Source of the DNA: an uncultured Verrucomicrobiota bacterium
GTDB lineage: Bacteria > Verrucomicrobiota > Verrucomicrobiia > Limisphaerales > UBA9464
Length of the DNA: 64,000 nt
Direction: 5' to 3'
NCBI GenBank assembly: GCA_903854475.1
Contig: CAINWP010000080.1
Coordinates: forward strand, 1,995 to 65,994
Shown here: positions 1 to 47,587 of the stretch, in pieces
Layout: the number at the start of each line of letters is the position of its first letter
Position numbering within the stretch: the stretch's first letter is position 1
Translations under genes and position numbers: made by a program
Notes under the pieces: generated by a model
What the model was told of the DNA's origin: nothing
The model's input: the letters and a program-made list of their open reading frames with translations, nothing else
Databases searched by the model: none

Positions 1-1141
1 AGAGCGAGGTCGGTTGGAGGTTGTAAATCGCGCCGTTGCCGCCATTAGAGGCCTTGCCGGTCTTCACATCGTCCAAAATTTGAATCTCGTGACGTCCGCG
101 CAGGTAGAGGCCGGAGTTCGATTTCGGAGCCACCTGGTACTCATAGCGAATGACGAAGTCCTTGAACTTCTCCTCGGTGAGCAAATCCGTGCCGTGCTCG
201 GTGAAATTGCCCTCGCGGTCCACCTTGAGCACGTTGCACAGCATGCCGTTCTGAACGCTCCACGACTTCATCCCATCATCGCGGCGGTACTTCCAGCCCT
301 TCATGGATGTGCCGTCGAACAGCAACTTGAAGCCCGCCTTCTTCTCGGCCGCGCTCAGCGCATTGGCCGTATCGGTCACCGCACCGGAACCCTTGGCCAG
401 GCCCAAGCCCCAACGAATGCCGCCAAGGATGTGCTTCTGGTAGGCGGCGCTGGTCCACACATCTTCGCGGTGGCCCAGGGAGGTGTAGAACATGCGACCA
501 CCGCCCTTGAGGTCTTTGCACCAGGACACGGGGTAATCGCCGGGCAAGTGATTCTGCGGGTGCTTGTCGAGGGTCAGCAGCCCGTGCACGCGATCGCGGT
601 GGAACTCCTTGAACTCGTAGATCTCGTCGTACATCGACCACGTGTCGCCCAGATGTTGGTTGGCGGGGTGCGCCGGGTCCTGGTTGGCCATGTCGACGGT
701 GACTTGCGCGCCGTGGGTCAAAAACAACCCGCCCAACATGCCGTAAAACGCCGGAAACCCATGGAACGTGTCGCTGCACGAGTGCATGCCGATGAGGGCG
801 TGTCCCTGCTCCACCCAGCGGATGAATCCTTCGCGATCGGGAATCGCCAAATCACCGGTGGTGTTCGCGAAGATCACCGCATCGACCTTGGCCAGATTGG
901 CCATGGAAAGCTTCTCGCGGACTTCGTTGTCGTCCTTGCCGTCGGCTCCGCCCCGCACGTAATCCACCACGGTGAAATCACCGGTGGTTTCACCAAGCGT
1001 CGCGATGACGTTCTCGGCGGTGGCGATGGAGCTGTGGCGGAAGCCCTTGGTGGCGGTGACCACGAGGACCTTCTTCGGCGCAGCCGCAGAAAGAGTCATC
1101 GCTGCCAACAGGCAACTGGATACGAGGGTGACGGTGTTCAT
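1..1141 (-). CDS. ThuA-like domain fused to DUF1080 (3-keto-disaccharide hydrolase-like) secreted protein; C-terminus runs off the left edge
   Basis: Own translation of the minus strand from ATG at 1141-1139. It reads MNTVTLVSSCLLAAMTLSAAAPKKVLVVTATKGFRHSSI...FYTSLGHREDVW (ThuA-type), then GFKLLFDGTSMKGWK...NSGLYLRGRHEIQILDD (DUF1080-type). It is absent from the ORF track because there is no stop inside the window. The listed 14..1552 + ORF is its antisense shadow. Confidence 0.8.
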   Translation of the reverse strand, partial: MNTVTLVSSCLLAAMTLSAAAPKKVLVVTATKGFRHSSIATAENVIATLGETTGDFTVVDYVRGGADGKDDNEVREKLSMANLAKVDAVIFANTTGDLAIPDREGFIRWVEQGHALIGMHSCSDTFHGFPAFYGMLGGLFLTHGAQVTVDMANQDPAHPANQHLGDTWSMYDEIYEFKEFHRDRVHGLLTLDKHPQNHLPGDYPVSWCKDLKGGGRMFYTSLGHREDVWTSAAYQKHILGGIRWGLGLAKGSGAVTDTANALSAAEKKAGFKLLFDGTSMKGWKYRRDDGMKSWSVQNGMLCNVLKVDREGNFTEHGTDLLTEEKFKDFVIRYEYQVAPKSNSGLYLRGRHEIQILDDVKTGKASNGGNGAIYNLQPTSL

Positions 1142-12081: not shown

Positions 12082-12606
12082 TTAATTTAGACTTGGGGCC
12101 ACTGCGGTTCCGTCTGACTGGAGGTCAACGGTCACCTCAGAGGCCGTCAAAGAAATCTTGGGGGTTCGAACCGAACGAGCCTGCTGAACCAGACCATTGG
12201 GCAAGTGGCGTCCTGCCAAGGTGGCCAAGCTTGTGCCGGCAAAAACTTCTTTCATCCGCTCCTGAGCCTCGGCCAACAAACCACACAGCGCACAACCACT
12301 ACTGTGTTCACAGCCCACATCGATTTCGAGGCATCGCTGTAGAGCGATTGGCCCCTCGATGGACTCCAAGATCTCAAGCACGGTGATATCAGAGGCTGGA
12401 CGGGTGAGGTAGAAGCCCCCACCGGACCCGCGGGTCGAGCCCACCAAGCCCGACTTGCTGAGATTCTGGAAAATTTTACCCAGAAAACTTTTCGGGACAC
12501 ACTCTTCTTCACAGAGGATGTCGATCATGACCACCTCGCCCAAAGGACGGCGAGAAAGGGCAATTAGCCCTAAAACCCCGTATTCTCCTGCTTTGGTGAT
12601 TTGCAT
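12082..12606 (-). CDS. Rrf2-family transcriptional regulator (IscR-like)
   Basis: MQITKAGEYGVLGLIALS... winged-helix N-terminus, GGGFYLTRPASDITVLEILESIEG, and a Cys cluster CEHSSGCALC. It heads the iscU/desulfurase operon. Confidence 0.85.
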   Translation of the reverse strand: MQITKAGEYGVLGLIALSRRPLGEVVMIDILCEEECVPKSFLGKIFQNLSKSGLVGSTRGSGGGFYLTRPASDITVLEILESIEGPIALQRCLEIDVGCEHSSGCALCGLLAEAQERMKEVFAGTSLATLAGRHLPNGLVQQARSVRTPKISLTASEVTVDLQSDGTAVAPSLN

Positions 12607-12614
12607 CCCTTGAA

Positions 12615-12633
12615 CCAGACCATTTCCGTCTGG
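12615..12633. promoter_or_regulatory. Inverted repeat CCAGAC-N7-GTCTGG just upstream of the Rrf2 gene start
   Basis: CCAGAC (12615-12620) and GTCTGG (12628-12633) are reverse complements and lie 9-27 bp from the ATG at 12606. The element CATTTCC/AGAC recurs at 12673-12685. Confidence 0.3.
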
Positions 12634-12705
12634 AATAAAATCAACGTACCCCCCTCCCCTGCACTGTCAAAACCATTTCCAGACCAAATTCATCTGATTC
12701 CCCAA

Positions 12706-12813
12706 AAAAGGGACAGGCTCTTCAAAAGGGACAGGCTCTTCAAAAGGGACAGGCTCTTCAAAAGGGACAGGCTCTTCAAAAGGGACAGGCTCTTCAAAAG
12801 GGACAGGCTTTTT
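12706..12813 (+). repeat. Tandem array, 6 x 18 bp, unit AAAAGGGACAGGCTCTTC (last copy degenerate)
   Basis: Read directly: five perfect head-to-tail units from 12706, and a sixth unit AAAAGGGACAGGCTTTTT. It lies in the Rrf2/nuoA divergent intergenic region. Confidence 0.95.
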
Positions 12814-12864
12814 TGAAGCGCTGGACTCAATGTCCACTTGCCGGGAAACGGCTTCGATCCCACC

Positions 12865-13260
12865 ATGTACCCATTGATGGATACTCAACTGAACCAGTAC
12901 CTTCCGGTGCTGATGCTGCTGTTCGTGGCTGCCAATTTTGCCGCTGGAACCTTGGCCGTGTCCGTGTTGCTCGGGAAATCAGGCCGTCGGACTCAAACCA
13001 AAGACATCCCCTACGAGTGCGGAATGTTGCCGCAGGGCGAGGGCAGCGCTCGACTCAGCATTAAGTTCTATCTAGTCGCCCTGCTATTCGTCCTGTTCGA
13101 TATCGAGGTAGTTTTCATGTACCCGTGGGCTGTGACTTTCAAAGAACTGGCCCGGACGGATCTGGCACTCGGCCTCGGCGGGATGCTTTCTTTCTTGGGA
13201 ATCGTCTTTGTCGGATACGTCTACGCCGTCAAAAAACGCGCGTTTGACTGGAAGAGCTGA
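12865..13260 (+). CDS. nuoA: NADH-quinone oxidoreductase subunit A
   Basis: PYECGMLPQGEGSARLSIKFYLVALLFVLFDIEVVFMYPWAV aligns with the NuoA/NdhC core. The first ATG is at 12865; the ORF track begins at TTG 12838. Confidence 0.85.
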   Translation: MYPLMDTQLNQYLPVLMLLFVAANFAAGTLAVSVLLGKSGRRTQTKDIPYECGMLPQGEGSARLSIKFYLVALLFVLFDIEVVFMYPWAVTFKELARTDLALGLGGMLSFLGIVFVGYVYAVKKRAFDWKS

Positions 13261-13429: not shown

Positions 13430-16400
13430 ATGAACTCGTACCCGTCCGTACCGAACTCACTCTACCGGCCTGACTTCGAACACGACGCGTGTGGCGTCGG
13501 TTTTGTCGCCAACATCAAGGGAACCCAGACTCATTCTGTGGTCCAACAAGGGCTCCAAATTCTTCGGAATCTGGACCACCGCGGCGCGTGCGGCTGTGAA
13601 GCCAACACAGGCGACGGTGCCGGCATCCTCATCCAGATGCCTCACGAGTTCTTGGCCAGCGAAACCCAGCGTGTGGGTATCACCCTGCCGCCCCCCGGTC
13701 AGTACGGCGTGGGCATGGTGTACTTGCCCCGGGATCCGCGGCAGCGCCGCAAGCTGGAGATGGCCTTCGAGAAGATCATTCAATCGGAAGGCCAAGATCT
13801 CTTGGGCTGGCGCACCGTGCCAACTGACAACAGCTCGCTCGGCGAGACTGCGAAGTCTTCGGAACCCCATGTCCGACAGGTCTTCATCGGCAAGAACCCG
13901 GAACTCAGCGACGACTTAGCCTTCGAGCGGAAACTCTACGTCATCCGCAAGCGCTCGTACTCCGAGATTCGTTGCTCCACCAAGGACGGCGCCGGGTACT
14001 GGTACATTTGCAGCCTTTCCTGCCGCACCCTCGTGTACAAAGGAATGCTGATGACCGAACAGGTCGACAAGTACTTCCTAGACCTCAAGAACCCAGACAT
14101 GAAGTCGGGTCTGGCACTGGTCCACTCCCGCTTCAGCACCAACACGTTCCCGAGTTGGGCCCGTTCGCACCCCTACCGCTACATCGCTCACAACGGCGAA
14201 ATCAACACGCTGCGCGGCAACATCAACTGGATGCGGGCCCGCGAGGCTCTGTTCCAGTCCGACGCCTTCGGTGACGACATCCAGAAGATCCTGCCTATCG
14301 TCGACCCTGACGGCAGCGACTCGGCCATGTTCGACAACGTACTGGAATTGCTAGTACTGGCCGGCCGCTCCTTGCCGCACGCGATGATGATGATGATCCC
14401 AGAACCCTGGGCCAATCATGAGTCGATGAGCGACGAGAAGAAGGCGTTCTACGAGTATCACTCCTGCCTGATGGAACCGTGGGATGGCCCTGCCTGCGTG
14501 GCCTTCACCGACGGTGTGCGCATCGGAGCGTCTCTGGACCGCAACGGCCTGCGCCCGTCGCGCTATTACGTCACCAAGGACGACCAGGTCATCATGGCCT
14601 CAGAGGTCGGCGTGCTCGATATTGCTCCGGAGAACATCGCCCATAAGGGCCGTCTCCAACCCGGCCGCATGTTCTACATCGACACGGCCCTGGGCCGGAT
14701 CGTGGATGATGCCGAGATCAAGGAACAGATCGCCATTGAACAACCCTATCGTCAGTGGCTTAACCAGCACTTGATCGAGTTGTCCTCGTTGCCCGACCCG
14801 GAGCACTTGCCCGAGCCCGGCCACTCCACGGTTTTGCAACGCCAACAGGCCTTTGGTTATTCTTTCGAAGACCTGAAAATGCTGCTGGTACCCATGGCCC
14901 GCGACGGCGTTGAAGCCATCGGCTCGATGGGAACCGACACGCCCTTGGCGGTGTTGTCCAACCACTCGCAGCTGCTCTACAACTACTTCCACCAGCTCTT
15001 CGCGCAGGTCACCAATCCTCCGATCGACTGTATCCGCGAAGAGATTGTTACCAGCGCGATCACCACCATCGGCTCCGAAAAGAACCTGCTCACCCCGTCA
15101 GCGGAGAGCTGCCACCTCATCGAGTTAAAGTCGCCGGTGCTGACTAACGAAGAATTAGCCAAGCTCAAGAGCATCAATCAGTCGGGCTACAAGTCGGTCA
15201 CGCTCCCCATCCTTTACAAGGTGGATAAGGGCTCCAAGGGACTTGAGAAGGCCCTGAAAGACCTCTTCAAGGCGGCCTCCAAGGCCATCCACGACGGGGT
15301 CAATATTCTGATCCTGTCTGACCGCGGACTCAGCGCCAAGAGCGCGGCCATCCCGGCATTGCTGGCTGTCAGCGGCCTCCACCATCACTTGATTCGCGAA
15401 GGCGACCGCAACCGCGTCGGGCTCGTTCTCGAGTCGGGCGAACCGCGCGAGGTTCATCACTTCTCGCTGCTCATCGGCTACGGGTGCGGAGCGATTAATC
15501 CGTATCTGGCCTTCGAGTCGATCGACGACATGATCCATCAGGGGTTGCTCACCAACGTCGACTCCAAAACCGCCCACAAGAACTTCGTCAAGTCCGCAGT
15601 CAAGGGCGTCATCAAGGTGGCCTCCAAGATGGGTATCTCAACCATCCAGTCCTACCGCGGCGCCCAAATCTTCGAGGCGGTCGGTATTAACGAGGCCGTC
15701 GTGGATCGCTACTTCACCTGGACACCGACCCGCGTGGAAGGTGTCGGTATGGAGGAGATCGCCCGCGACATCGAAATTCGTCACCGGACCGCCTTCCCCG
15801 ACCGGAAGTCGCAGAACCCCACGCTCGATGTCGGTGGCCGGTATCAGTGGCGTCGCGATGGCGAGTACCACCTGTTCAATCCCGATACGGTGCACAAGCT
15901 GCAAAAAGCGGTGCGCAACGGAGATTTCAAGGCCTTCCAAGACTACTCCAAGTCGGTCAATGAGCAGTTCAAGCATTGGGCCACACTGCGAGGACTCCTC
16001 GACTTCAAGTCGTCGAGCCCCATCCCCATCGAAGAGGTTGAATCGGTCGAGTCCATCGTGAAGCGGTTCAAGACCGGCGCGATGAGCTATGGATCCATCT
16101 CCCAGGAGGCCCATGAGACCCTAGCCATCGCCATGAACCGTCTGGGCGGCAAGTCCAACACCGGCGAGGGCGGCGAAGATCCGGAACGTTTTATTCCCCT
16201 GCCCAACGGCGACTCCAAGAATTCCGCCATCAAGCAAGTGGCATCCGGGCGCTTTGGTGTGACCAGCCAGTATCTGGTCAGCGCCCAAGAACTCCAGATC
16301 AAGATGGCCCAGGGCGCCAAGCCCGGTGAGGGCGGCCAATTGCCAGGCACCAAGGTGTACCCATGGGTGGCCAAGACCCGTCACTCGACCCCGGGTGTCG

Positions 16401-18019
16401 GTCTGATTTCCCCGCCGCCGCACCACGACATCTATTCCATCGAGGATCTGGCCGAGTTAATCCACGATCTAAAGAACGCCAACATCCACGCCCGGATCAG
16501 CGTCAAGCTGGTGTCCGAGGTGGGCGTCGGCACCATCGCCGCCGGCGTGGCCAAGGCGCATGCCGACGTGGTGCTCATCTCGGGTTACGATGGCGGCACG
16601 GGTGCTTCACCCCAGACTTCCATCAAGCACGCGGGCATTCCTTGGGAACTCGGCTTGGCCGAAACTCACCAGACCCTGGTGCTCAACAACCTGCGCTCGC
16701 GCATCGTGGTCGAGACCGACGGTCAACTGAAAACCGGCCGCGACGTGGTCATCGCTGCGCTGCTGGGTGCCGAGGAGTTCGGATTTGCCACCGCGCCCCT
16801 GGTGTCACTGGGCTGCATCATGATGCGCGTGTGTCATCTGAACACGTGCCCTGTGGGCGTCGCCACTCAAGACCCTGAACTGCGCAAGCGCTTCACCGGC
16901 GAACCGGAGCATGCGATCAACTTCATGCGCTTCATTGCTCAGGAAGTTCGCGAGATCATGGCGCAACTCGGTTTCCGCTCCATCACCGAGATGGTGGGCC
17001 GCACCGACCGGCTCGAGCCCCGGAAGGCCATCGAGCACTGGAAGGCCAAGGGGGTCGACTTCAGCAAGATCCTCTATCAGCCGGAGGCCGGGCCCGAAGT
17101 CGGACGTTACTGCCAGATGATCCAAGATCACGGCATCGACAAATCGCTGGATATCACCCAGCTCCTTCCGTTGTGCCTACCCGCCATCGAGCGAGGAGAG
17201 AAGGTCAAAGCGACCCTTCCCATTCGCAACGTCAACCGCGTGGTCGGAACCATCACCGGCAGCGAGCTGACCCGCCAACGCGGTGCCGCCGGACTGCCAG
17301 AAGACACCATCCAAATCACCTTCCAAGGCAGTGCTGGTCAGAGTTTCGGCGCGTTCATGCCCAAGGGCATGTCCTTCACGCTCGAGGGCGATGCCAACGA
17401 CTACTTTGGTAAGGGCCTGAGCGGCGGCAAACTCATCTTGTATCCGCCGGCAGCCAGCACCTTTGCACCGGAAGAGAACATGATCGTCGGCAACGTTGCG
17501 TTGTATGGCGCGACCCAGGGTGAAGTCTTCATCCGCGGCATGGCGGGTGAGCGATTTGGCGTCCGCAATTCCGGCGTCAAGGCCGTCGTCGAAGCCGTGG
17601 GAGACCATGGCTGCGAGTACATGACCGGCGGAACGGTGGTCATTCTCGGACCGACCGGCCGCAATTTCGCAGCCGGCATGTCCGGTGGCGTTGCTTATAT
17701 CTACGACGAGGTCGGCGACTTCCCCTCCAAGTGCAACATGCAAATGGTCGCCTTGGAGAAGCTAGAAGAGTCCGATAACGCAGTGCTCCAGGAGATGCTC
17801 CAAAACCACGCGATCAACACCAAGAGCACCCGGGCCGCCTCCATCCTGAAGGACTGGAGCACCACGCAAGCGAAGTTCATCAAGGTAATGCCCCGCGACT
17901 ACAAGCGCGTGCTCACAGCGCTGCTCAAAGCCCAGGCCGATGGTCTCACGGGCGATGACGCACTGAATGCTGCCTTCGAAGCCAACTCCAAAGACGTCTC
18001 CCGGACTGGTGGGGGCTAA
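13430..18019 (+). CDS. gltB: Glutamate synthase large subunit
   Basis: 1529 aa. It has an N-terminal Ntn amidotransferase (DACGVGFVA), an FMN/3Fe-4S central domain, and a C-terminal GXGXG domain. Confidence 0.97.
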
Positions 18020-18085
18020 TATTCAAGCGCGACACAGAACCCCGCAAATCGTCACGAGACCAAGGCCTTCAAACGACATAGAGAT

Positions 18086-19564
<1,479 letters not shown>

Positions 19565-19974: not shown

Positions 19975-21894
19975 ATGTTCCCTCCGGCCCGCACCGTCTT
20001 GTCGCTGCTGCTGTCGTCACTGCTGTCTTCGACCCTGTTGCCCGCGATCCTCGAAGGTCAAACCTCCCGCCGGGCCAACGAATCCGGGGCAGCCCGATTG
20101 AAGGTAGACCTGTTGGGTGTCTTCGCCCATCCCGACGACGAAACCGGCGTGGCAGCCACCATCGCCTCGCTGAGCCATGGTTCTGGTCGTTCCATTGCCC
20201 ATGTCTACTGCACTCGGGGCGAAGGCGGAGGCAACATGGTGGGAACCCAGTCGGGACCGGCTCTAGGAATCCTGCGGGAGATCGAACTGCGGGACGCCCT
20301 TCGAGGACTGGGTGTGCAACAAGTGCATTTCCTCGATAAGGCCGACTTCGCCTACACCGAAAGTCTCGGTGTCACCCTAGAGCGATGGAACCACTCGGAC
20401 ACCCTCGGCCGCTTGGTTCGGGTTATCCGCACCTTGAGACCAGAGGTGGTGGTCACCATGAACCCCGCCCCGTCGCCCGGGCAGCACGGCAACCATCAAG
20501 CTGCCGGATGGCTAGCCACCGAGGCCTTCGAGGCCGCGGCGGATCCCAACCGATTTCCGGACCACCTGCGCCTGGAAGGCCTGTCCCCATGGCGACCGCG
20601 GAAGCTTTTTTATTCCGGGGCCGCCGCGAATCCGGGGCAGTCTTTGTCGATCGCGCTCACTCAGACCCTACCCGACGGACGCCGGCCGGTGAGCGTTGCC
20701 GCCGAGGCCCTGTCGAACCACCGATCCCAGGCATTTGGTTCCATTGCCCAGTCGCCGTGGTTTCGTCGCACCACCAACCAATGGTTCACCCCGGTTTGCA
20801 GCGTCCTGCCCATCCACCCCACCGAAACTGATCTCTTCCAAGGGCTTCCACTCCCCGAGGCTTTAGGAGCCTGTCCCCCGCGTTGGGATGGGTTTCCGGG
20901 GTTTCCGGTGCCGGAGACAACTGAAGACACCGACCTGTTTTTCGTTCCAAGACCTGCGGTGGCTCGTTACCGAGAGTTTGTCCGCGTCCACCGGATCGCC
21001 CATGCGGCCCAGTCCTTTCAGGCCGATGTCCCCGTCGTCGCCGGCCAAGAAACGAGCCTGTCCCTTTTCCGGGACCGTTCTTTAGCCCAGGCAACGGTGC
21101 AGTTCCAAACCCCACCCAGCTGGTCGGCGCGAGTAATATCGGGAGGTCGAGTGGGCGTCATGGCCCCGGCCACGGCCCGTGAGGACGTCACACTGCTGGC
21201 GAGGGTCGGTGACCACCGAACAATGGTCCGCCTGCACCCGGTGCCATCCCTGAAGGTCCCCAGAATCGCAGCACTCCCCTGGAATCAAAACAGCGAGGAC
21301 CCAGCCTGGAAGGCCTTGCCCATCACCACCATCGGGCCCGAGCAAGCCTGGCAAGGCCGCTCAGACGGCGCTTCAGACTGCAGTGGTCGATTCCGTTTAG
21401 GCCATGACGGCAAACACCTCTGGGTGGAAATCCAGATCCGGGATGACCATGTGGTTTCCAACATCGAAACCAATGACATCAAGGGGCATTGGCGGAGCGA
21501 TTCGGTAGAGCTTTGTGTGGACCCCTCAGCTGGTGCTGAACACACGCTGGCTTGCTGGAAAACCGGTATCTTTCCCTTCGACCGTTCCGGCCAGGTCCGG
21601 GGTGCCCGCGATGCCGATGCCAATCCTGGCCCGCTAGAAACCCATTCTCCGGGCACCCGCCTGCTTTCGTGGCGCACTGCTGATGGTTACACTCTCCGTG
21701 CGCTCATCCCGTTGCGGGAGTTGGGATTGAAAGGAAAGTCCGGCGTCGGTGCTGGGTTCAATGTGTTGATCTATGACGGCGACAAGGTTGATGCCCAGCC
21801 CGGAGAAAACATCAACCGCACCCGACTGGCCTGGTCCCCACGACCCGGCGTTCAGGGACGGCCTGAAGATTGGGGACGGATCGTCCTGGAGTAG
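19975..21894 (+). CDS. Secreted PIG-L/LmbE-family deacetylase with C-terminal CBM9-like carbohydrate-binding domain
   Basis: Signal peptide and LLGVFAHPDDETGVAATIA (PIG-L motif). The C-terminal ~200 aa resemble CBM9/DOMON-like sugar-binding modules (LWVEIQIRDDHV...DSVELCVDP...FNVLIYDGD). Confidence 0.75.
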   Translation: MFPPARTVLSLLLSSLLSSTLLPAILEGQTSRRANESGAARLKVDLLGVFAHPDDETGVAATIASLSHGSGRSIAHVYCTRGEGGGNMVGTQSGPALGILREIELRDALRGLGVQQVHFLDKADFAYTESLGVTLERWNHSDTLGRLVRVIRTLRPEVVVTMNPAPSPGQHGNHQAAGWLATEAFEAAADPNRFPDHLRLEGLSPWRPRKLFYSGAAANPGQSLSIALTQTLPDGRRPVSVAAEALSNHRSQAFGSIAQSPWFRRTTNQWFTPVCSVLPIHPTETDLFQGLPLPEALGACPPRWDGFPGFPVPETTEDTDLFFVPRPAVARYREFVRVHRIAHAAQSFQADVPVVAGQETSLSLFRDRSLAQATVQFQTPPSWSARVISGGRVGVMAPATAREDVTLLARVGDHRTMVRLHPVPSLKVPRIAALPWNQNSEDPAWKALPITTIGPEQAWQGRSDGASDCSGRFRLGHDGKHLWVEIQIRDDHVVSNIETNDIKGHWRSDSVELCVDPSAGAEHTLACWKTGIFPFDRSGQVRGARDADANPGPLETHSPGTRLLSWRTADGYTLRALIPLRELGLKGKSGVGAGFNVLIYDGDKVDAQPGENINRTRLAWSPRPGVQGRPEDWGRIVLE

Positions 21895-30526: not shown

Positions 30527-31207
30527 TCAGTACTCACCGACCGCAGCGGCGTGTCCACTCAAGATGGCCACGCCGGCACTGGTGCCCAGCCGATTGGCTC
30601 CGGCTTCCAGCATCGCCAAGGCCATGGCCGTGTCCCGGATACCGCCACTGGCCTTGACGCCCAAAGCGGAACCCACAGCCTGCCGCATGAGGCGGATGTC
30701 CTCGACGGTGGCCCCGCCGGAACCAAATCCAGTGGAAGTCTTCACGAAACGGGCTCCTGCCTCGACGCTGAGGGAGCAGGCACGAAGTTTTTCTTCTTCC
30801 GAGAGCAGACACGTCTCGAGGATAACCTTCACCCAAACACCCTGAGCAGCCTCCACCACATCCCGAATTTCCCGAAACACGGCGCGGTCATCCCCGTCCT
30901 TGAGTCGTCCGATATTCAGGACCATATCAATTTCTTGAGCTCCGAGATCGATGGCCACCTCGGTCTCATACCGCTTGGAATCACCGTCCATAGCACCGAG
31001 AGGGAATCCGACCACCGCCGCCACCTTCACGTCCGAACCCTCCAACAAGGCAGCAGCCTGAGCCACCCGACTCCCGTGGACACAGACACTCCAGAACTGG
31101 TGTTCCAGTGCCTCGGCGCACAATTTGGCAACATCCGCCGCCCGCGCCTCCGGCTTGAGCAGGGTGTGATCGATGTGACGGGCCAGATCCCGGACGCTCC
31201 ATTGCAT
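30527..31207 (-). CDS. deoC: Deoxyribose-phosphate aldolase
   Basis: [21 protein letters not shown]..., VCVHG..., VKVILE..., and FVKTSTGF (Schiff-base Lys context). The start is set at ATG 31207. The ORF-track extension to 31390 only translates the upstream repeat array. Confidence 0.9.
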
Positions 31208-31251
31208 TCCGGCAATGTCACGGTCTTCCGCTGAGGGTTCAAGCTTGCAAG

Positions 31252-31372
31252 GGAGCCTGTCCCTTAGAAGGAGCCTGTCCCTTAGAAGGAGCCTGTCCCT
31301 TGGAATGTCCCATGGAAGGAGCCTGTCCCTTGGATGGAGCCTGTCCCCTTGGAAGGAGCCTGTCCCTTGGAA
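31252..31372 (-). repeat. Tandem array, about 6.5 x 18 bp; unit on the minus strand TTCCAAGGGACAGGCTCC (plus strand GGAGCCTGTCCCTT + 4-nt spacer)
   Basis: Read directly: GGAGCCTGTCCCTT at 31252, 31270, 31288, 31318 and 31355, GGAGCCTGTCCCCTT at 31336, and a partial copy TGTCCCATGGAA at 31306. The core is the same as in the 12706-12813 array. Confidence 0.95.
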
Positions 31373-31388
31373 AGAAGCGTATAGATGC

Positions 31389-31416
31389 AAAAAGCCGGCC
31401 TCTGGATGAGGCCGGC
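31389..31416 (-). terminator. Intrinsic terminator downstream of the TonB-dependent receptor
   Basis: 9-bp stem GCCGGCCTC / GAGGCCGGC with a 5-nt loop, followed on the minus strand by TTTTT. Confidence 0.7.
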
Positions 31417-31456: not shown

Positions 31457-33583
31457 TTAGAACTTCTTGCTCAACTCGATGTAGTAGAAACGGCCGCGCA
31501 AGTCGGCGAACTGACGAGCAACGTTACTCTCGAAGGCCGAGAAGACAGCCGGCGGGCGCTCGTCGAACACATTGTTGATACCAAAGCTGAGGTTGGCTTC
31601 CACCTTCGGGATGGTGTACCGCGTGCGAAGGTCGATCGTGTTGTAGTCACGACCCGAACGGGTGTCGGGAGCGTTCCCATCAATCGTCTCGTAGTTCTGT
31701 CCACTCTGATCTTCACGATAGGCTGAGGTGAAGTTCCAGGCGACAGCAGCATAGTAACGCTCGTACTCCCAAGCGACCGACGCCGTGGCGCGATATTCGG
31801 GAAATCCCACATCGGACATGGCTGCACCGGAGGCCCAGAAACTTCCAAGGTAATCGATCGGAGCCGAACCCGGGAAGTTCTCCATGTTCATGGACAGCAC
31901 CTTGGTGGCATTGCCAGCCAGAAAGAGCTTACCCATCGAGGTCTCGATCTCCTGGGTCATCGACAAGTCGAGACCGTCGGTCGAACGGGTCCCCGTGTTG
32001 ATCGGACCCACGTTGCGAATCTGGTCGATATCGCCGGTCGTCGGATCCACGGCTACCTGGGCACCCAGGGGATTGGCCGCGCTCGGAGTCGCAGAAGCCC
32101 CATAGGGGTTCTTGGCATTGCCGGAGCCACCGTTCATGGCCCATTGGTTGACAATGTACTGCTCGCTCGAGAACGGAATGCCTGTCTGAGTGATCTTGTA
32201 GTAGTCAAGACCCACGGTGAAACCCTTGAGGAAGTTCGGGGAGAACTTCGCTCCAATGAGCCAATTCTCGGCCTGTTCGGGCTTCAAGTTGGGGTTGTTG
32301 ACGGCGAGGACGCCATTCTGGGGCTGGGTTCGGATCTGAGTGATCGGATTGTAAACCTCAGGAAAATCCTGACCACCCGCCGGTTGATAAATCGAAGCCA
32401 GTGACGGAGCGATGAAACCCTGACCGTAAGATCCGCGGATCACCACCTGCTTCTCGATCGGCTGCCAACGGAAGTTCACGCGCGGCTTAGCACCGGTGTC
32501 ACCCGCGTCGGAAAACTGCTCATAACGGACCGCAGTGCCCACAGTGAAGGATTCCATCCCGGTGAACTTGAGATCGTTACCAAAGATGGGTACCTGAACC
32601 TCGCTATACACAGCGTCGGTCTGGCGGCCGGCAGCCCACTGGACGGCCGTATTGAACGGAGCCACCGAGCCATTCTGAAGAGCGAAGTCGGGGGCGATGT
32701 CGATCGAGTCACGACGGGTCTGGGCACCGAGGGAGGCTTGGATGGCCCCACCGGGCAAGTCGAACACTTCGCCACGAACCAAACCGTCGAACTGCTGGGT
32801 AACCCAAGCGTTTTGCTGGGTGGCCGAACCTTTGAATCCGTTGAGGACGTCCGCTGAATTCACCGCCGAGGTGCCATTGATCGGAGTATAACCGAACGGA
32901 TTGAACGCGGACGATGCATCACCGGAATTCAGAGCCGCCTGATATTTATCGGTCAGCACGCCGCCGTTGATGACGGTGTCGTTCTGGGTGCGGTCGTACA
33001 GGAAGGCCGTTTCCCAATTCCAGGTCGATTCACCGATGCGGCCACGGAGGCCGGCCACGGTGTGGATGCTCTGGTACAGGTCGTTGTAAATGCGCGGCCC
33101 GTTCTCGACCGGGCGGTAGGTGATGTTGAACTTGTCCGTCGCGGCGCTGCCCGGGAACACCTGCTGCCACCAGTGGTTGCCTGAAGACATCGTATAGCCG
33201 CCCAGCGGACCAGGGGCCAGCGTGTACGACGACTTGTTGCTCATGTAGTAGGCGTCGGCGAAGGCCTCGAGGTGCTCTCCGAAGAGTTGGTGAGCCACCG
33301 AGGTGTCGAAGCCATAGCGATCGTGCGGACGATACGCCGTGGTGTAATAACCATAGGGGAACCCTGCACTGGTTCCCGGGACGAGGCTTTCATTGCCTCC
33401 GTAACGCAGCTGGGCACCCACCGGCAGAACGCCGCGCAAGGCGGCCTCGGCTGCGGTCCGGGCGGCGGTGACTTGTGACGCGGCCGTCGCCTTGGAAGTG
33501 TCTACATACGCGCTGGGATCGAACTTGTTTCCAGCCACTACGATGGGGAATTGGAGTCCACCCACGGTCACCGAAGCCGGCAC
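31457..33583 (-). CDS. TonB-dependent receptor, beta-barrel part (3' portion of a frameshift-split gene)
   Basis: Barrel-type sequence ending in the canonical ...RGRFYYIELSKKF. Its reading frame stays open upstream to 33717 and there reads as receptor-like sequence (AFSNTRGLTNASQVPTFTGP). Confidence 0.8.
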   Translation of the reverse strand: MPASVTVGGLQFPIVVAGNKFDPSAYVDTSKATAASQVTAARTAAEAALRGVLPVGAQLRYGGNESLVPGTSAGFPYGYYTTAYRPHDRYGFDTSVAHQLFGEHLEAFADAYYMSNKSSYTLAPGPLGGYTMSSGNHWWQQVFPGSAATDKFNITYRPVENGPRIYNDLYQSIHTVAGLRGRIGESTWNWETAFLYDRTQNDTVINGGVLTDKYQAALNSGDASSAFNPFGYTPINGTSAVNSADVLNGFKGSATQQNAWVTQQFDGLVRGEVFDLPGGAIQASLGAQTRRDSIDIAPDFALQNGSVAPFNTAVQWAAGRQTDAVYSEVQVPIFGNDLKFTGMESFTVGTAVRYEQFSDAGDTGAKPRVNFRWQPIEKQVVIRGSYGQGFIAPSLASIYQPAGGQDFPEVYNPITQIRTQPQNGVLAVNNPNLKPEQAENWLIGAKFSPNFLKGFTVGLDYYKITQTGIPFSSEQYIVNQWAMNGGSGNAKNPYGASATPSAANPLGAQVAVDPTTGDIDQIRNVGPINTGTRSTDGLDLSMTQEIETSMGKLFLAGNATKVLSMNMENFPGSAPIDYLGSFWASGAAMSDVGFPEYRATASVAWEYERYYAAVAWNFTSAYREDQSGQNYETIDGNAPDTRSGRDYNTIDLRTRYTIPKVEANLSFGINNVFDERPPAVFSAFESNVARQFADLRGRFYYIELSKKF

Positions 33584-33618: not shown

Positions 33619-34464
33619 TCAGTCCTCGGGTATTCGAGAAGGCCGGAGTCCAATGCCATTGGCCACGTTCAGCACGTCTCCAGAAGCGCTGGTCACCGAA
33701 TGAGTGCCGAAGCTGCGCTTATTGAAGAAAAGCCCTGGGTTGGAGGTGCCCGAAACGTTGCTGCCAGCGGGGAAACTGCGATCGCGGTCGATGCTCAGCA
33801 GGTCGTTGGCAGAATTGTACTCCGCGGAGAAGAACGCACGGGTCTTCTCATTGGAGGTGCCGAAGTTGACCTGGAAGCGGCGCTGGGAGATGTCCTTGTC
33901 CATCGTGTTCCCGTAGAACGCGCTGAACTGGGTGCCCTGGAAGTTCTTCTTAAGCTTAATGTTCACCACGCCTGCGACGGCATCCGTACCGTAGATGGCA
34001 CCCGCGCCATCATTGAGCACTTCGATGCTCTCGATGGCTGCCTGGGGAATCATATTCAGGTCGGAAGTCGAGGTACGACGACCGTCCACCAGCAGCAGGG
34101 TCGCATTGCCCGGAAGTCCACGAAGACCTACGAAAGACTGTCCCGAACCACCATTTCCGTAACCTTCATTAAGGTTTCCGGTGCCACCCATCTGGGGCAG
34201 CTTGAGGCGAAATACATCGCTCAAATTGGCGAACCCACCATTGACCGGTGAGGCCATGTCGATGGCAGTGACAGATAAAGATCCTTCCGCCTCGGCTCCC
34301 GAAAGGAGGGATCCGGTGACGACCGTAGACTCGAGGGTCTTGGCCGCAGGATCAGCATTCTGGGCCCAAAGAGCGGGCACAGCAATCAATTGGGATCCGA
34401 GCCCGACCGTGATGGCACTCCGGAGAACTGTGCCCCGGAACTGGCGATAGTTGTGGTACGACAT
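33619..34464 (-). CDS. TonB-dependent receptor, signal peptide + plug part (5' portion of a frameshift-split gene)
   Basis: Signal-like MSYHNYRQFRGTVLRSAITVGLGSQLIAVPALWAQ, and plug motifs VGLRGLPGNATLLLVDGRR and IESIEVLNDGAGAIYGTDAVAGVVNI. It ends at TGA 33619-33621, in a different frame from the barrel part. Confidence 0.8.
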   Translation of the reverse strand: MSYHNYRQFRGTVLRSAITVGLGSQLIAVPALWAQNADPAAKTLESTVVTGSLLSGAEAEGSLSVTAIDMASPVNGGFANLSDVFRLKLPQMGGTGNLNEGYGNGGSGQSFVGLRGLPGNATLLLVDGRRTSTSDLNMIPQAAIESIEVLNDGAGAIYGTDAVAGVVNIKLKKNFQGTQFSAFYGNTMDKDISQRRFQVNFGTSNEKTRAFFSAEYNSANDLLSIDRDRSFPAGSNVSGTSNPGLFFNKRSFGTHSVTSASGDVLNVANGIGLRPSRIPED

Positions 34465-34623
34465 AGGTTGGTTGGTCTGAAACATCCTGGTCACATTTAT
34501 TTGACAGCGTGGATTCCCTACTACGGAAAACCCGCTTCGCAATCGGTGCAAGCGATTTTGTTTGAGAACGAATAAAAAGCATCCCAAAGCCTTGATCCCT
34601 CGCAAAACGACAAAATCGTCCGG

Positions 34624-43864: not shown

Positions 43865-44650
43865 ATGAACAGTCAACGCTGCCGCTGCACCCGTGCCTTC
43901 ACTCTGATCGAGTTACTGGTGGTCATCGCCATCATCGCCATCCTCGCCGGCATGCTCTTGCCCGCCTTGTCTCGAGCCAAATCCAAGGCGGTGAAGACCC
44001 TCTGCGCAAGCAACTGCAAGCAGTGGGGTATCGCGGTCAATCTGTACGCCTCCGACAATCAGAACTCCTTCCCAGACAACAGCGGTGGCGCCGGGTTCAG
44101 CTGGATGATGCCCACCATGAGCAACTTCTGGAACGGCTACCTCATCAAGAACCGACGATCCTCGGCCAACAACACCCGCGCGGCCAATGATGTGCTGTTC
44201 TGCCCGACCGATGACTGGCACCGCGCCGCAGAACGCGGGATGATTAGCACCGACAATGAGCCCCAATTGACCGGTTACTTCTACTTGCCTGGCCGGCGAA
44301 CCGGAGACGCCGATGTCACCGGAGGAGCCCAGGGTACTTCTGAGTGGTTTTTCAAAAAGAAACTCGGTGGCATGTACGAAGCAGCCCCCATCATCATCGA
44401 CCGCATGCAGGCCTTGGGTTCCAAGACGACCAACATGCTCGACCCCAAGCTGAACTGGTTCACCGATTACAATGGTAAGAAAGTGGCCACAGCCGTTCAC
44501 CGAATCACCCGGGGTGCACCCGAAGGCGGCAACTTCGGCTTCGAAGACGGCCACGTTGAATGGCAGTCCAACAAGCGAGTCTCCCTCGGCTCCGACTACG
44601 GCGGTTGGCAATGCTTCTTCAAGATCTCGGTAGCCACCCCTGTTCAGTGA
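43865..44650 (+). CDS. Prepilin-type N-terminal cleavage/methylation domain protein, DUF1559-like
   Basis: Short leader, then [34 protein letters not shown]. The C-terminus reads [13 protein letters not shown]. Confidence 0.85.
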
Positions 44651-44752
44651 TTCATCTCGTGAGCCGGCCTTCCAGCTCACAGAGAACGCGCCCGGCGATT
44701 TTGGATCGACCCCGAGGACTCGCTCTTTGTCAGACGACATTCCAACCGAGGC

Positions 44753-45904
44753 TCACTCCCGGCGGAAAGTCAGCACGGGCATGTCCCGCAGGCTAGATCG
44801 CCGCAAGACTGCAATGTACCGACGGGACAAAGCCCCCAAACGCGCAGTGACGCGAACTTCGAAGGTGCTGCTGACGGTCGAGAAAACCGCTAGCGGCGTG
44901 CCTTGGTTGGGCATCACCGGAACTCCCTGCAAGCGGGCGATGTCTTGGGGCCCGCGGGCTGGTGTGTCATCATAAGTGCCATCCACCCCATCCATGCCCG
45001 CGCGCTGTTCTTGGATGTTGCGGGCAATATTTTCGTCCCCACCACAGGCCATGACCAAAACAGGGTACGGAGCCGTGTTGATATTCACCTGACCGCTGGA
45101 CACCGCCGAGAACACGTCCGCCAAGCCCACCGACCCTGCGATACTCTGTCCCAGAAAGGTGGATTGGACACGCCGCCCCATTGAATCAACCGAGTGCTTA
45201 CCGCCACTGCCGCCACTTTCGCCTGTACCACCGCCACTGCGGGGTCCCCAGTACAACTGCGGAGTGATTCCTCGGATTTTGAGCAATTCCGACATGTCAT
45301 CGATCGGGCCATTCTTGGCGACATAGGGAGGATTGAGCATCCGGTAAAAATCGCTCTCTGCGCCGCCACCCATGGCCGAATCGTCATTGGGGTCGATCCA
45401 GTCTCGAATTGCCGAAGAGACATCGGCTGAATCCGAACCTCCGGCACCACATATCTGCAAGATCAGCTCCAGCAACTGAGGATTGCGCGTGGCGATGGAA
45501 TTAATGTTCAGGTATCGCTCCGCATCCATGATCTCGATGGAAATGGTACCATCTCCAAGAGGCACCTCCGTCAAGGAGACACCCTCAAAGGGATTGTCCG
45601 CGATATTTGTCGGGCCCACGCCTCCGGCCCAAAACTGATTGAGTCCGTCATAGGTCTGTTCGCCGGGTATCTGCCGAGACAACGACAGAACCCATTTGGC
45701 CATCTCAATGCCTGAGCGTCCCATCCATTCCATTTCGCTCTCGCTTTGGGTGCGAGTCGCCAGGCGCCCCTCAACCTTCATCGTGTAGGCAAAGGCTGTG
45801 ACGATCACCGCCATTGCGAAGATCAGCAACATGACCATCAACAGCGCCACACCCCGCTGACAATTTTTGGGGCTACCCTGTGTCTGGACGACGTTATTCA
45901 TCAT
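44753..45904 (-). CDS. gspK: Type II secretion system protein K-like (GspK)
   Basis: RGVALLMVMLLIFAMAVIVTAF..., IRDWIDPNDD, and VNINTAPYPVLV helix-hairpin-helix-type motifs. ATG 45904 overlaps the upstream stop (ATGA). Confidence 0.75.
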   Translation of the reverse strand: MMNNVVQTQGSPKNCQRGVALLMVMLLIFAMAVIVTAFAYTMKVEGRLATRTQSESEMEWMGRSGIEMAKWVLSLSRQIPGEQTYDGLNQFWAGGVGPTNIADNPFEGVSLTEVPLGDGTISIEIMDAERYLNINSIATRNPQLLELILQICGAGGSDSADVSSAIRDWIDPNDDSAMGGGAESDFYRMLNPPYVAKNGPIDDMSELLKIRGITPQLYWGPRSGGGTGESGGSGGKHSVDSMGRRVQSTFLGQSIAGSVGLADVFSAVSSGQVNINTAPYPVLVMACGGDENIARNIQEQRAGMDGVDGTYDDTPARGPQDIARLQGVPVMPNQGTPLAVFSTVSSTFEVRVTARLGALSRRYIAVLRRSSLRDMPVLTFRRE

Positions 45905-46593: not shown

Positions 46594-46991
46594 CGGGCCC
46601 CCTGCACATATTGTTTGGGAAAATAGAGTGCGCTCATGCGGCGCTCCGAACCTTTAGGACCACCTACGATGACAAAGTCGGCACGAAACAAACCGTTGGT
46701 TCCCACCTCATAGACCGAACGGCTCCATTGGTAGCCGGGGTAGAGCTTGCCGAAGTCGCCATGGTCGGACATTTCTTCTAGGCGATTGGAAATGGACAAT
46801 TCGGCCGCCAAGCTGCTGGCGTCCACCTCGACCCGATTGAGGGACTTCGCCGACTTGAGAGCGGTGGAACACACCGAGATGAAACCGAAAAGAGCCAAAG
46901 CCATGATGGCCGAGGCGACAGCCACCTCGATCAGTGTGAACGCCGCACCGGCCTGACCACGGCGGGCTGTGATGACAGGATGGCACTTCAT
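46590..46991 (-). CDS. Minor pseudopilin, GspI-like
   Basis: Prepilin motif GAAFTLIEVAVASAIMAL, 133 aa. The start is set at ATG 46991, which overlaps the upstream stop (ATGA). Confidence 0.55.
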   Translation of the reverse strand: MKCHPVITARRGQAGAAFTLIEVAVASAIMALALFGFISVCSTALKSAKSLNRVEVDASSLAAELSISNRLEEMSDHGDFGKLYPGYQWSRSVYEVGTNGLFRADFVIVGGPKGSERRMSALYFPKQYVQGAR

Positions 46992-47575: not shown

Positions 47576-47587
47576 CGCTTCAGTCTC

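Follow-up and report, generated by a model that had tools for sequence, protein, structure and literature searches.

Why should an 18-bp tandem array stand between two divergent promoters, and why does its core recur in a second array of the same stretch of DNA? We addressed these questions in the window (the whole 64-kb stretch analysed) and in related genomes. The repeated element is probably a genomic word that operates at the level of DNA and is read by a protein. More tentatively, the array may be a slippage-amplified cluster of such a word, one that is specific to a clade, read genome-wide and similar to an uptake or recombination tag. In this best explanation, the word is neither an operator specific to nuoA and Rrf2 nor an element acting as RNA.

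Two arrays with a common core

Array 1 (12706 to 12813, plus strand) lies between the Rrf2 and nuoA promoters. Its unit, AAAAGGGACAGGCTCTTC, is the core GGGACAGGCTC followed by the spacer TTCAAAA; five copies are perfect and a sixth is degenerate at its 3' end. Tandem Repeats Finder places it at 12706 to 12809 (period 18, 5.8 copies, 100% matches, score 208), and direct reading of the sequence gives the sixth unit, AAAAGGGACAGGCTTTTT, which ends at 12813. Together they bear out the original observation of five perfect copies and a degenerate one. The array is also, as had been said, not a CRISPR: its units are contiguous, and the "spacers" of 5 to 10 nt are themselves repeated.

On one side of array 1 is the gene of an Rrf2-family regulator (12082 to 12606, minus strand), the first in an Rrf2-nifU/iscU-cysteine desulfurase operon. 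Its start, at 12606, is at the distance first given, 100 bp from the array. The putative Rrf2 promoter region (12615 to 12697, minus strand), read from the sequence and kept in 12 lineages, would have TTGACA as its -35 element (12665 to 12670) and TACGTT as its -10 element (12643 to 12648). The promoter is flanked by two palindromes of the CCAGAC-N7-GTCTG(G) type (12615 to 12633 and 12679 to 12697), which are probably Rrf2 operators; array 1 begins 9 bp past the distal one. On the other side is a solitary nuoA-like gene (Oxidored_q4; 12877 to 13260, plus strand), followed by gltB and gltD. The distance of 52 bp first given between the array and nuoA is correct for the in-frame ATG at 12865, but this ATG is not conserved, and comparative alignment puts the conserved start (ATG-GAT-ACT) at 12877, 64 bp past the array. 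A putative nuoA core promoter, TTGCCG-N17-CACCAT (12838 to 12866, plus strand), is kept in all lineages, arrayless ones included, and lies 10 nt before this ATG, which would make the transcript near-leaderless.

Array 2 (31252 to 31372, minus strand) has six exact cores and one truncated unit, and the 11-nt core is common to the two arrays. Tandem Repeats Finder describes it with a period of 18, 7.0 copies, 82% matches and 12% indels. Read on the minus strand, it is TTCCAA, TTCTAA or CATCCAA plus GGGACAGGCTC, six times, and a truncated unit of 12 nt; the spacers are CTTCCAA, CATCCAA and CTTCTAA, and one unit has 19 bp. Orthologs of this array occur in L007, L016, L050, L089, L094 and L111. The claim that both arrays have the same geometry holds only when deoC is read on the minus strand from the conserved ATG at 31207. 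A 287-aa ORF (30527 to 31390) traverses the array, and the DeoC domain and a conserved 20-residue stretch start after it; with the corrected start, the gene (DeoC/LacD aldolase) spans 30527 to 31207, minus strand. The putative deoC core promoter, TTGAAC-N17-GACATT (31214 to 31242, minus strand), is kept in six genomes and in L173 and would be of the leaderless type, 6 nt before the ATG. Array 2 ends 9 nt upstream of its -35 element. At the other end, 21 nt upstream of the array, a hairpin, GCCGGCCTC-ATCCA-GAGGCCGGC, is followed by TTTTT (31394 to 31416, minus strand). It was read from the sequence and is kept in L007, L050, L089 and L111; a terminator scanner did not report it. It is likely the terminator of a TonB-dependent receptor gene, so that array 2 would lie between this terminator and the deoC promoter. 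Consensus promoter and terminator scans of both array spacers called nothing, and hence the promoters described here are identified solely by their conservation across genomes.

A word over-represented in freshwater Verrucomicrobiota

The conserved word can be written R-GGGACAGGCTC-Y, or R-GGG(A>G)CAGGCTC-Y, a motif of 12 to 13 bp with a moderately conserved flank beside the core. The window has 19 cores with at most one mismatch, against 2.1 expected, and none of 100 shuffles reached this number. Outside the arrays, it has 4 exact copies, against 0.03 to 0.07 expected under Markov orders 0 to 5. Exact copies in the window are well above expectation and copies with one mismatch are near chance, an exact-or-nothing pattern that fits a strictly read word. 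The 15 exact copies fall into seven loci, so that a locus comes about every 9 kb and a copy about every 4 kb. Related loci hold 34 single copies in 506 kb, where about 0.5 would be expected; these over-representations refer to the 64 kb and to about 0.6 Mb of related fragments, not to whole genomes.

A scan of a collection with one genome per species revealed at least 116 loci, mostly from about 18 freshwater Verrucomicrobiota MAGs. In such MAGs, no fewer than 30 distinct intergenic loci have arrays with the invariant core. The arrays form a family with periods of 16 to 20 bp and 2 to 21 copies, and at least seven orthologous loci have arrays at the same place with differing spacers. The recurrence of one core at so many loci and in many genomes upholds the early suspicion of a common, function-bearing core rather than independent slippage. 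Matches outside Verrucomicrobiota (in Actinobacteria and others) were rejected as unrelated coding low-complexity repeats, e.g., GAGCCTGTCCC, which encodes EPVP. Among viral contigs, the core dimer had four matches, all in coding repeats rich in Pro, Glu and Gly, and the 14-mer AAGGGACAGGCTCC had 116 single matches, which is about chance by our estimate, and none with two copies. A full-text literature search for the core on either strand returned unrelated primers only, and we found no description of the word in the literature on verrucomicrobial tandem repeats or uptake sequences.

Single copies inside genes

The word also occurs inside genes. Two exact cores are antisense to the PIG-L/CBM9 gene (19975 to 21894, plus strand). 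The first (20867 to 20877, minus strand; codons GGA GCC TGT CCC) is kept in L174, has one mismatch in L173 and is absent in L175. The second (21054 to 21064, minus strand) lies in another reading frame (ACG AGC CTG TCC CTT), is kept in L173 and L174 and is again absent in L175. Both are retained at 74 to 79% protein identity. The DUF554 gene (49449 to 50183, plus strand) has two antisense copies 21 nt apart (49919 to 49950, minus strand), one exact (49919 to 49929) and one reading GGGGCAGGCTC (49940 to 49950), which together encode R-S-L-S-P..W-S-L-P. Six orthologs, some with as little as 60% identity, retain both, with 10 of 11 columns invariant in each copy; all eight third codon positions are invariant, against 19% gene-wide. 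Finally, the RibD_C reductase gene (50959 to 51828, minus strand) has an exact sense copy (51497 to 51507, minus strand; codons GGG ACA GGC TCC, encoding GTGS), of which all 11 positions are invariant in six orthologs, including the three third positions (24% gene-wide). This gene aligns gap-free with solved homologs from the PDB, without an indel at the core, and an insertion-type mobile element inside genes was rejected on these grounds.

Within genes, the core is thus found in three reading frames and on both strands. The alignments indicate that these copies are under purifying selection at the DNA level and that they were put into coding sequence by substitution. The word forces peptide motifs on proteins (e.g., RSLSP in DUF554), a clear case in which selection on DNA shapes protein sequence.

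A word proposed to be read as DNA

In the mechanism that we propose, a putative conserved sequence-specific protein would read the word as DNA, genome-wide. Each core would be recognised on its own, because there is no helical phasing between units and no orientation rule. Arrays would arise via replication slippage or unequal exchange and persist only where extra DNA is harmless, i.e., in the gap from a terminator to the next promoter or between divergent promoters. The word itself could mark DNA as self, as a tag of the DUS/USS or Chi type. Cells would preferentially take up, or protect and recombine, DNA that bears it, and the resulting molecular drive would keep copies exact, put them into coding sequence by substitution and favour arrays of many copies.

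A long, asymmetric motif suits words of the DUS/USS or Chi type better than it suits the degenerate sites of transcription factors. Still, we regard the specific role of an uptake or recombination tag as doubtful. The concentration of the word in promoter spacers and its roughly eightfold intergenic density count against such a tag, and the former is exactly what a promoter-linked function would predict. The density, below that of DUS/USS, the length, beyond that of any known Chi, and the differing strand preferences of arrays and coding copies also weigh against it. We know of no natural transformation in this clade of Verrucomicrobiota, nor, to our knowledge, do DUS, USS or Chi form tandem arrays. 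In its boldest and slightly less likely form, this reading would give a clade of freshwater Verrucomicrobiota a self-recognition word of 12 to 13 bp. The word would be a third, independent system of DNA uptake sequences, or else a Chi of unusual length, with a drive that rewrites codons in genes and inflates arrays in permissive intergenic DNA. We know of no earlier description of the tandem amplification of an uptake or Chi-type self-recognition word. As a separate observation, the window includes a type II secretion/pseudopilin cluster, which is not diagnostic of uptake.

Arrays upstream of inferred promoters

The position of the arrays brings in a serious alternative, if a somewhat less likely one: they could be sites upstream of promoters at which a nucleoid-associated protein or a global regulator, specific to the clade, binds. 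As such they would be activator sites, or an insulator or topological barrier between transcription units, with the copy number tuning or buffering the Rrf2-isc and nuoA promoters and the in-gene copies being extra architectural binding sites. The arrays do sit upstream of inferred core promoters, in either orientation, and conserved -35/-10-like elements directly follow them at nuoA, deoC, a MOSC-like gene and fabD. The density of arrays and intergenic copies is about 8 times that of coding copies. Where the array form was lost (L147 and L173), dispersed or variant copies are still in the same spacers, as with the two dispersed single copies in the deoC spacer of L173. Tandem direct repeats are also a classical form of the operators or centromeres bound by RHH, MraZ, ParB/SopB-type and iteron-binding proteins. 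Array-bearing spacers appear enriched among divergent genes and rare among convergent ones (11 divergent, 14 to 16 co-directional and 2 to 4 convergent, against 22, 198 and 37 in the background), though these counts are approximate because the gene caller was crude and mis-called deoC, and the convergent deficit is not significant once normalised for spacer length.

Other observations fit such a protein less well. The genes beside the arrays are functionally unrelated housekeeping genes (nuoA, deoC, purK, fabD, glgB, prfC, hsp20 and ABC transporters). With periods that range from 16 to 20 bp, neighbouring sites do not face the same side of the helix. The core is exact, not degenerate, and the mid-gene copies are strongly selected. 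Furthermore, L146 and L147, which have no array at nuoA, keep the same nuoA promoter. The conserved mid-gene copies and unrelated neighbours do not fit operator sites limited to the regulatory DNA of a coherent set of genes, and the varying period does not fit the fixed spacing of an operator array or iterons. The original suggestion of an iterated binding site is compatible with our data, but it cannot be specific to the Rrf2/nuoA promoter, given the mid-gene copies and the palindromic operators that Rrf2 seems to have of its own. Likewise, the expected bias in position and orientation was found in part: arrays lie upstream of inferred promoters, but their orientation is not obligatory and there are copies in the middle of genes.

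Regarding strand, six of the seven loci of the window are on the G-rich strand, and the GC skew has one sign throughout. In the 8-kb fragments, neighbouring loci more than 500 bp apart are on the same strand in 9 cases and on opposite strands in 8. Arrays there are on the C-rich strand in 17 ortholog groups and on the G-rich strand in 7, unlike coding single copies, of which 6 to 7 of 7 are on the G-rich strand. KOPS or other architecture-imparting sequences were rejected, since arrays 18 kb apart are on opposite strands within a region of uniform skew.

Variable copies around a fixed core

The series of loci anchored on Rrf2, found through this protein alone and blind to the array, is informative. 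An array is at the same site in 20 of these loci, with the exact core in 113 of 127 units and at least 20 spacer variants of 5 to 10 nt. Among loci whose Rrf2 proteins are 97 to 98% identical, the nuoA/Rrf2 array has 3, 5, 6, 7, 10, 11 or 13+ copies, absolute numbers that short-read assembly may distort. The anticipated VNTR behaviour was thus observed, as was the presence of arrays at orthologous positions in relatives. The period is 16, 17, 18, 19 or 20 bp and varies even within one orthologous locus. At nuoA/Rrf2, spacers diverge fast against an unchanged core, and no lineage has fixed core changes. L172 (16.8 kb) and L175 (21.9 kb), from more distant relatives, share the gene order but have no exact copy.

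The variability raises the possibility of a selfish or neutral family of minisatellites, in which the core would drive its own duplication (by slippage, nicking or as a recombination hotspot) and the arrays would persist as junk that the genome tolerates, affecting expression at most incidentally. Human minisatellite families share a core, and the arrays resemble them. The hypervariable copy number agrees with this, as do the duplication of units in blocks at the Rrf2-anchored loci, the expansion of variant cores (GGGGCAGACTC in L020 and GGGACAGGCTT in L173) and the tendency of arrays to break short-read assemblies, with about half of those at MAG loci at contig ends. Intergenic tandem repeats also underlie structural variants in freshwater Planctomycetota (PMC9426551). 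We nonetheless find this explanation improbable. Pure neutrality explains neither the fixity of the core amid diverged spacers nor the invariant synonymous sites of isolated in-gene copies, which persist to a protein identity as low as 60%. A core-dependent drive would still need a trans-acting factor, and this alternative therefore merges into the preferred one.

RNA, peptides and other identities

Could the element act as RNA, as a 5' leader or as a small RNA that titrates an RNA-binding protein, be it a CsrA/Rsm sponge or a boxA-like NusB/NusE site? The units contain GGA, most arrays share their direction with the downstream gene, and the junction GCTCTTCAAAA is loosely similar to boxA, GCTCTTTAACAA. 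We consider this very improbable. There is no conserved promoter upstream of the arrays, and the deoC spacer leaves just 21 nt from terminator to array; the promoter-like elements are downstream, 6 to 10 nt from start codons, and the 5' leader once envisaged for array 1 was accordingly not borne out. In ortholog group f (at least five genomes), L039 and others, the array runs against the downstream gene, and antisense copies within coding sequence are conserved as well. What stays invariant is GGGACAGG rather than the part resembling boxA. RNA folding of the array gave no structure beyond that of shuffles (z = -0.8), and a search of the window and seven loci against Rfam at gathering thresholds had no match, so the proposed CsrA/Rsm sponge is unsupported. 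A sponge would be a discrete transcript with GGA in hairpin loops, but the array is framed by neither promoter nor terminator. Conservation of arrays and coding copies, moreover, extends to both orientations with respect to transcription, where a sponge would show it for one strand.

The ORFs that had been listed across array 1 (12601 to 12816, plus strand, and 12667 to 12888, minus strand) exist and are the repeat read through as KRDRLF and EEPVPF. That the repeat encodes peptides, as a small ORF of its own or by extending nuoA or deoC at the N-terminus, has virtually nothing in its favour beyond ORFs that traverse both arrays and a unit of six codons, against which stand periods of 16, 17, 19 and 20 bp at orthologous loci, stop codons (TAA, TAG) in some spacers, conserved nuoA and deoC starts downstream of the arrays, and cores in three frames and both strands of real genes.

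Several other identities were rejected. REP, BIME or MITE elements do not agree with the asymmetric core and the absence of a hairpin signal in DNA folding of the array (z = -0.4), and G-quadruplex or hairpin structures were rejected on the sequence. A sigma-54 promoter lacks its GG-N10-GC spacing here. DnaA boxes, IHF sites and MraZ boxes did not match or had the wrong period.

Comparison with known systems

The consequences depend on what the word is for. An uptake or recombination tag would imply sequence-specific genetic exchange in a lineage without known transformation or Chi, and the 18-mer would be a concrete bait for the receptor. An architectural or regulatory site would imply a DNA-binding specificity that is new and has hundreds of sites in each genome. 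Either way, the arrays are ready VNTR markers for strain resolution in lake metagenomes.

Among known repeats, bacterial VNTRs such as mycobacterial MIRU and the cyanobacterial STRR heptamer are also head-to-tail and intergenic, with many loci per genome and copy numbers polymorphic among strains. The arrays have both hallmarks of VNTRs and minisatellites, a head-to-tail unit of 10 to 100 bp at a fixed locus and copy numbers that differ between strains, and like human minisatellite families they combine a core common to loci with locus-specific remainders. They differ in a core that is invariant across loci and genera and in the conserved single copies inside genes. MIRU units are longer (40 to 100 bp) and inside operons, and STRR units have 7 bp, unlike the intergenic units of 16 to 20 bp described here. 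Closer in phylogeny and habitat, Okazaki et al. (2022) reported intergenic tandem repeats whose number of units rises and falls within freshwater Planctomycetota populations, in the same PVC superphylum (PMC9426551); these were mentioned in passing, with no motif, core, orthology or in-gene copies. Iterons, ParR/parC, SopB/sopC, omega heptads and MraZ boxes share with the arrays the tandem direct repeats near promoters and a conserved, putatively protein-binding core. They are, however, single loci of one system with fixed spacing, and have no conserved copies in unrelated coding genes.

Words dispersed over genomes offer other parallels. HIP1 (GCGATCGC) of cyanobacteria is an over-represented short word found in genes and spacers and kept by selection within a clade. 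The verrucomicrobial word is likewise over-represented, maintained in its clade and present in genes and spacers, but HIP1 is an 8-bp palindrome without tandem arrays. Chi of RecBCD/AddAB resembles our word in being G-rich and asymmetric, in its over-representation, in lying within genes, in its taxon specificity and in requiring an exact sequence for recognition. In a Chi-like reading, tandem copies would raise the probability of recognition; we know of no Chi arrays in nature, and Chi has 5 to 8 nt where the word has 11 to 13. The DUS of Neisseriaceae and the USS of Pasteurellaceae occur about once per kb, far from the one locus per 9 kb seen here, and form inverted pairs at terminators rather than head-to-tail arrays. 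In other respects the likeness is close: an exact, asymmetric core of 10 to 12 bp that is massively over-represented, genic and intergenic copies in either orientation and several reading frames, an apparent entry into coding sequence by substitution, conserved orthologous positions and a moderately conserved flank. DUS "dialects" are, moreover, restricted to clades, as is the word described here (PMC3630211, PMC2346458).

Two tandem arrays share one core

Both tandem arrays in the window are built on the same 11-nt core, GGGACAGGCTC. The first (12706-12813, plus strand) lies between the Rrf2 and nuoA genes. Direct reading and Tandem Repeats Finder (12706-12809, period 18, 5.8 copies, 100% matches) bear out the original prediction of five perfect 18-bp units, AAAAGGGACAGGCTCTTC, and a sixth with a degenerate 3' end. 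The core had also been predicted in a second array (31252-31372), and we find it there, upstream of deoC, on the minus strand: six exact cores, one truncated unit and one 19-bp unit, with the spacers CTTCCAA, CATCCAA and CTTCTAA. The ORFs that cross either array are read-through of the repeat, as had been claimed for the first. Allowing one mismatch, the core occurs 19 times in the window, where shuffles give an expectation of 2.1; outside the arrays there are four exact copies, and Markov models of order 0-5 predict 0.03-0.07. The DNA analysed consists of fragments, i.e., the 64-kb window and about 0.6 Mb of related loci.

A family of arrays in freshwater Verrucomicrobiota

A scan for pairs of cores separated by 6-9 nt, in one genome per species, returned at least 116 loci. 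About 75 of the loci listed come from about 18 freshwater Verrucomicrobiota MAGs; the remaining matches, and four viral ones, are unrelated G+C-rich coding repeats in which GAGCCTGTCCC is read as E-P-V-P. The verrucomicrobial arrays occupy at least 30 loci defined by their flanks. At least seven of these are shared by several genomes: upstream of nuoA, of deoC and of a MOSC-like gene, in the fabD/purK interval (20-bp units, up to 21 copies), adjoining glgB, between the genes for an SDR and an ABC ATPase, and after an NAD kinase gene. The core is identical at every family locus, with a purine always at position -1 and usually C or T at +11. The spacers vary by locus and genome (CTTCCAA, CTTTCAA, CTCACAA, CACCCAA, CTCGGACAA and others), and periods run from 16 to 20 bp. 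Since about half of the arrays lie at contig ends, they break short-read assemblies. Some array-bearing lake-metagenome MAGs with 80-90% DNA identity to the window are titled "Akkermansia muciniphila" (L001, L012, L013, L029, L034, L040, L049, L051, L058, L077, L084, L095, L106, L108); given their lake origin, this submitter label is probably wrong.

GC skew on the plus strand is negative over the whole window, though about two-thirds of the genes lie on that strand. In related loci, the arrays are on the locally C-rich strand in 17 ortholog groups and on the G-rich strand in 7; 6-7 of 7 coding single copies are on the G-rich strand.

The array at nuoA varies in spacers and copy number

Because the core-pair scan selects for intact cores, we retrieved the nuoA locus by its Rrf2 protein only (44 metagenome loci, 98% to 31% identity). 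At 82% Rrf2 identity or more, an array occupies the same position in every spacer-containing locus outside the L147/L150 lineage (86-88%), which keeps nuoA and its promoter with just two dispersed GGGACAGGCTT copies. Loci at 77% (L146, L152) hold only motif relics, and more distant ones have neither nuoA nor the motif. On the 22-kb syntenic contig L173, five GGGACAGGCTT units stand in tandem at nuoA, and the deoC spacer contains two exact copies that are dispersed. Hence, judging by these lineages, the motif outlasts the array form in the spacer. The GGGACAGGCTT variant (C11 to T) is carried by every nuoA-locus copy of one lineage (L173 2701-2782; L147, L150), with the G-rich spacer GTGGGWG; the other copies of that contig are canonical. 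A second core variant, GGGGCAGGCTC, recurs in the window (49940) and in L141, L169 and L170.

Among strains 97-98% identical, the short-read assemblies give copy numbers of 3, 5, 6, 7, 10, 11 and 13 or more. The exact core is present in 113 of the 127 units of the Rrf2-anchored arrays, the exceptions being mostly terminal, and there are at least 20 spacer variants of 5-10 nt. In the 98% cluster the sole variation is A<->G at three positions immediately 5' of the core. Spacer variants of the 97-98% strains (TTCAAAA, TTCAAAG, TTCAAGA, TTCAAGG and TTCAGAG; L121-L124, L129, L134, L153) likewise differ only there, always A<->G, and are grouped in blocks of identical units. Two layouts are either array-mediated rearrangements or assembly artefacts: in L123 (about 848-940, reverse strand) the array adjoins TCCATTGATGG and some 70 nt are missing, including the presumed nuoA promoter; in L101 (first 200 nt), 150 nt from the contig end, what follows the array bears no relation to nuoA.

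Arrays and predicted promoters

Pfam places cysteine desulfurase, NifU/IscU and Rrf2 (12082-12606, minus strand) on one side of the first array and, on the plus strand, a solitary nuoA-like gene (Oxidored_q4, 12877-13260) followed by gltB and gltD (13430-19564) on the other. No further nuo genes lie nearby; the arrangement is the same in the syntenic contigs L173 and L175, and L144, L145, L151 and L156 have a different membrane-protein gene in place of nuoA.

Aligning the Rrf2/nuoA spacer across 12 lineages revealed a conserved TTGACA-N16-TACGTT on the Rrf2 strand. It is flanked by palindromes of the CCAGAC-N7-GTCTG(G) type (12615-12633 and 12679-12697), conserved even in array-less lineages and probably autoregulatory operators of the Rrf2/IscR-like regulator. 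Towards nuoA, TTGCCG-N17-CACCAT is conserved and is followed after 10 nt by an ATG-GAT-ACT (12877) that is conserved too; the originally predicted start, ATG 12865, is not. The array occupies the interval from the distal palindrome to the nuoA -35 element. On one side of the second array are the hairpin and T-run (31394-31416) that end a TonB-dependent receptor gene; on the other is TTGAAC-N17-GACATT-N6-ATG of deoC, likewise conserved. The true deoC start is ATG 31207. A third family has the same promoter-like layout, TTGCCA-N17-GACGAT-N6-ATG. Consensus promoter and terminator scans of both spacers called none of these promoters; we infer those of nuoA, Rrf2 and deoC from cross-genome conservation. 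If they are right, these near-leaderless genes would have the arrays upstream of their core promoters, outside any 5' leader. The layout TTGnnn-N17-nAnnAT with an ATG 6-10 nt on and no Shine-Dalgarno recurs in three unrelated genes (window 12838-12879, 31199-31242; L001, L031, L054, L091), which suggests that mRNAs with no leader, or almost none, are common in this clade.

The TonB-dependent receptor is split in the window into barrel (31457-33583, 708 aa) and Plug (33619-34605, 328 aa) ORFs by a frameshift, pseudogenization or a sequencing error; in L173 both domains are on a single 1005-aa ORF.

Copies inside genes are conserved at the DNA level

The four exact copies that the window has outside its arrays, and one single-mismatch copy, lie within Pfam-supported genes: two antisense in different reading frames of a PIG-L/CBM9 gene, two antisense and 21 nt apart in a DUF554 gene (49449-50183), and one sense in a RibD_C reductase gene, where GGG ACA GGC TCC encodes GTGS. 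The alignment of GTGS with TVKS of a solved homolog has no gap, so this copy arose by substitution, not insertion.

We retrieved orthologous DNA through protein homologs. In DUF554 (7 sequences, down to 60% identity), 19% of third positions are invariant over the whole gene against 8/8 in the cores, and 10 of 11 core columns are invariant per copy, the sole change being A<->G at core position 4. In RibD_C (6 sequences), the figures are 24% against 3/3, with 11 of 11 columns invariant. With third positions treated as independent, such joint invariance has a probability of about 2 x 10^-8. At 74-79% identity the PIG-L copies persist, one with a single mismatch. The syntenic L172 (51%, 16.8 kb) and L175 (60%, 21.9 kb) have no exact copy and different peptides at those positions; therefore, the word is limited to one clade. 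Judged from these alignments, gene-internal copies are under DNA-level selection, and within its clade the word appears to dictate local protein sequence. In DUF554 and its homologs P0001-P0013, the peptide R-S-L-S-P-x2-W-S-L-S is near-invariant within the word-bearing clade, and the 51% homolog lacks it; the two antisense copies appear to impose this peptide.

Copies in mraZ show turnover: exact in L170 (13762), one-mismatch GGGACAGGCTG in L167 (5407) and L168 (6992), and none in the window. A second RibD_C site has a conserved GGGACAGGCTG in four relatives (L165-L169).

What the word may be

The word is probably read as DNA, by a putative conserved sequence-specific protein, and the arrays would be slippage products in permissive DNA. 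That such a word serves as an uptake or recombination tag falls a little short of an even chance as a whole, and the tag role specifically, drawn by analogy, is doubtful. A drive in which tagged DNA is preferentially taken up or protected would also account for array growth. A type II secretion/pseudopilin cluster (N_methyl, T2SSK-like, T2SSF) adjoins the dcw cluster (mraZ, rsmH, ftsI, murE, murF; 43865-49063) and alone is no sign of competence.

A serious rival, if a rather unlikely one, is that a putative nucleoid or regulatory protein binds the arrays upstream of promoters. Array spacers (11 divergent, 14-16 co-directional, 2-4 convergent, against a background of 22, 198 and 37 in a gene call that is crude outside Pfam-checked ORFs) fit either promoter-linked placement or the capacity of only long free spacers; the shortage in convergent spacers was not significant once spacer length was normalised. 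An RNA function is unlikely, because there are conserved antisense copies, arrays in one ortholog group of at least five genomes (and elsewhere) run antisense to the gene downstream of them, folding of the array found no structure and Rfam gave no match to it. Unrelated neighbour genes, lack of phasing and mid-gene copies exclude a gene-specific operator; variable periods and stop-containing spacers, a coding role; opposite array strands under uniform GC skew, KOPS-like polarity; and the core-spacer contrast with synonymous-site conservation, pure neutrality.

Full-text literature searches for the core returned only unrelated primers, and we found no description of such a word or such arrays in Verrucomicrobia. 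The closest statement in print concerns freshwater Planctomycetota, in which structural variants are reported to stem from intergenic tandem repeats (PMC9426551). The element joins features of over-represented genomic words (DUS/USS, Chi, HIP1) with those of shared-core VNTR/minisatellite arrays, a combination that we have not seen described.

The word resembles DUS/USS and Chi in being exact or absent, long, asymmetric, gene-embedded, conserved position by position and clade-limited. We know of no such tandem arrays for uptake sequences or Chi; moreover, its density is low relative to uptake sequences and it is longer than any known Chi. Still, these systems are a better match for the word than transcription-factor sites.
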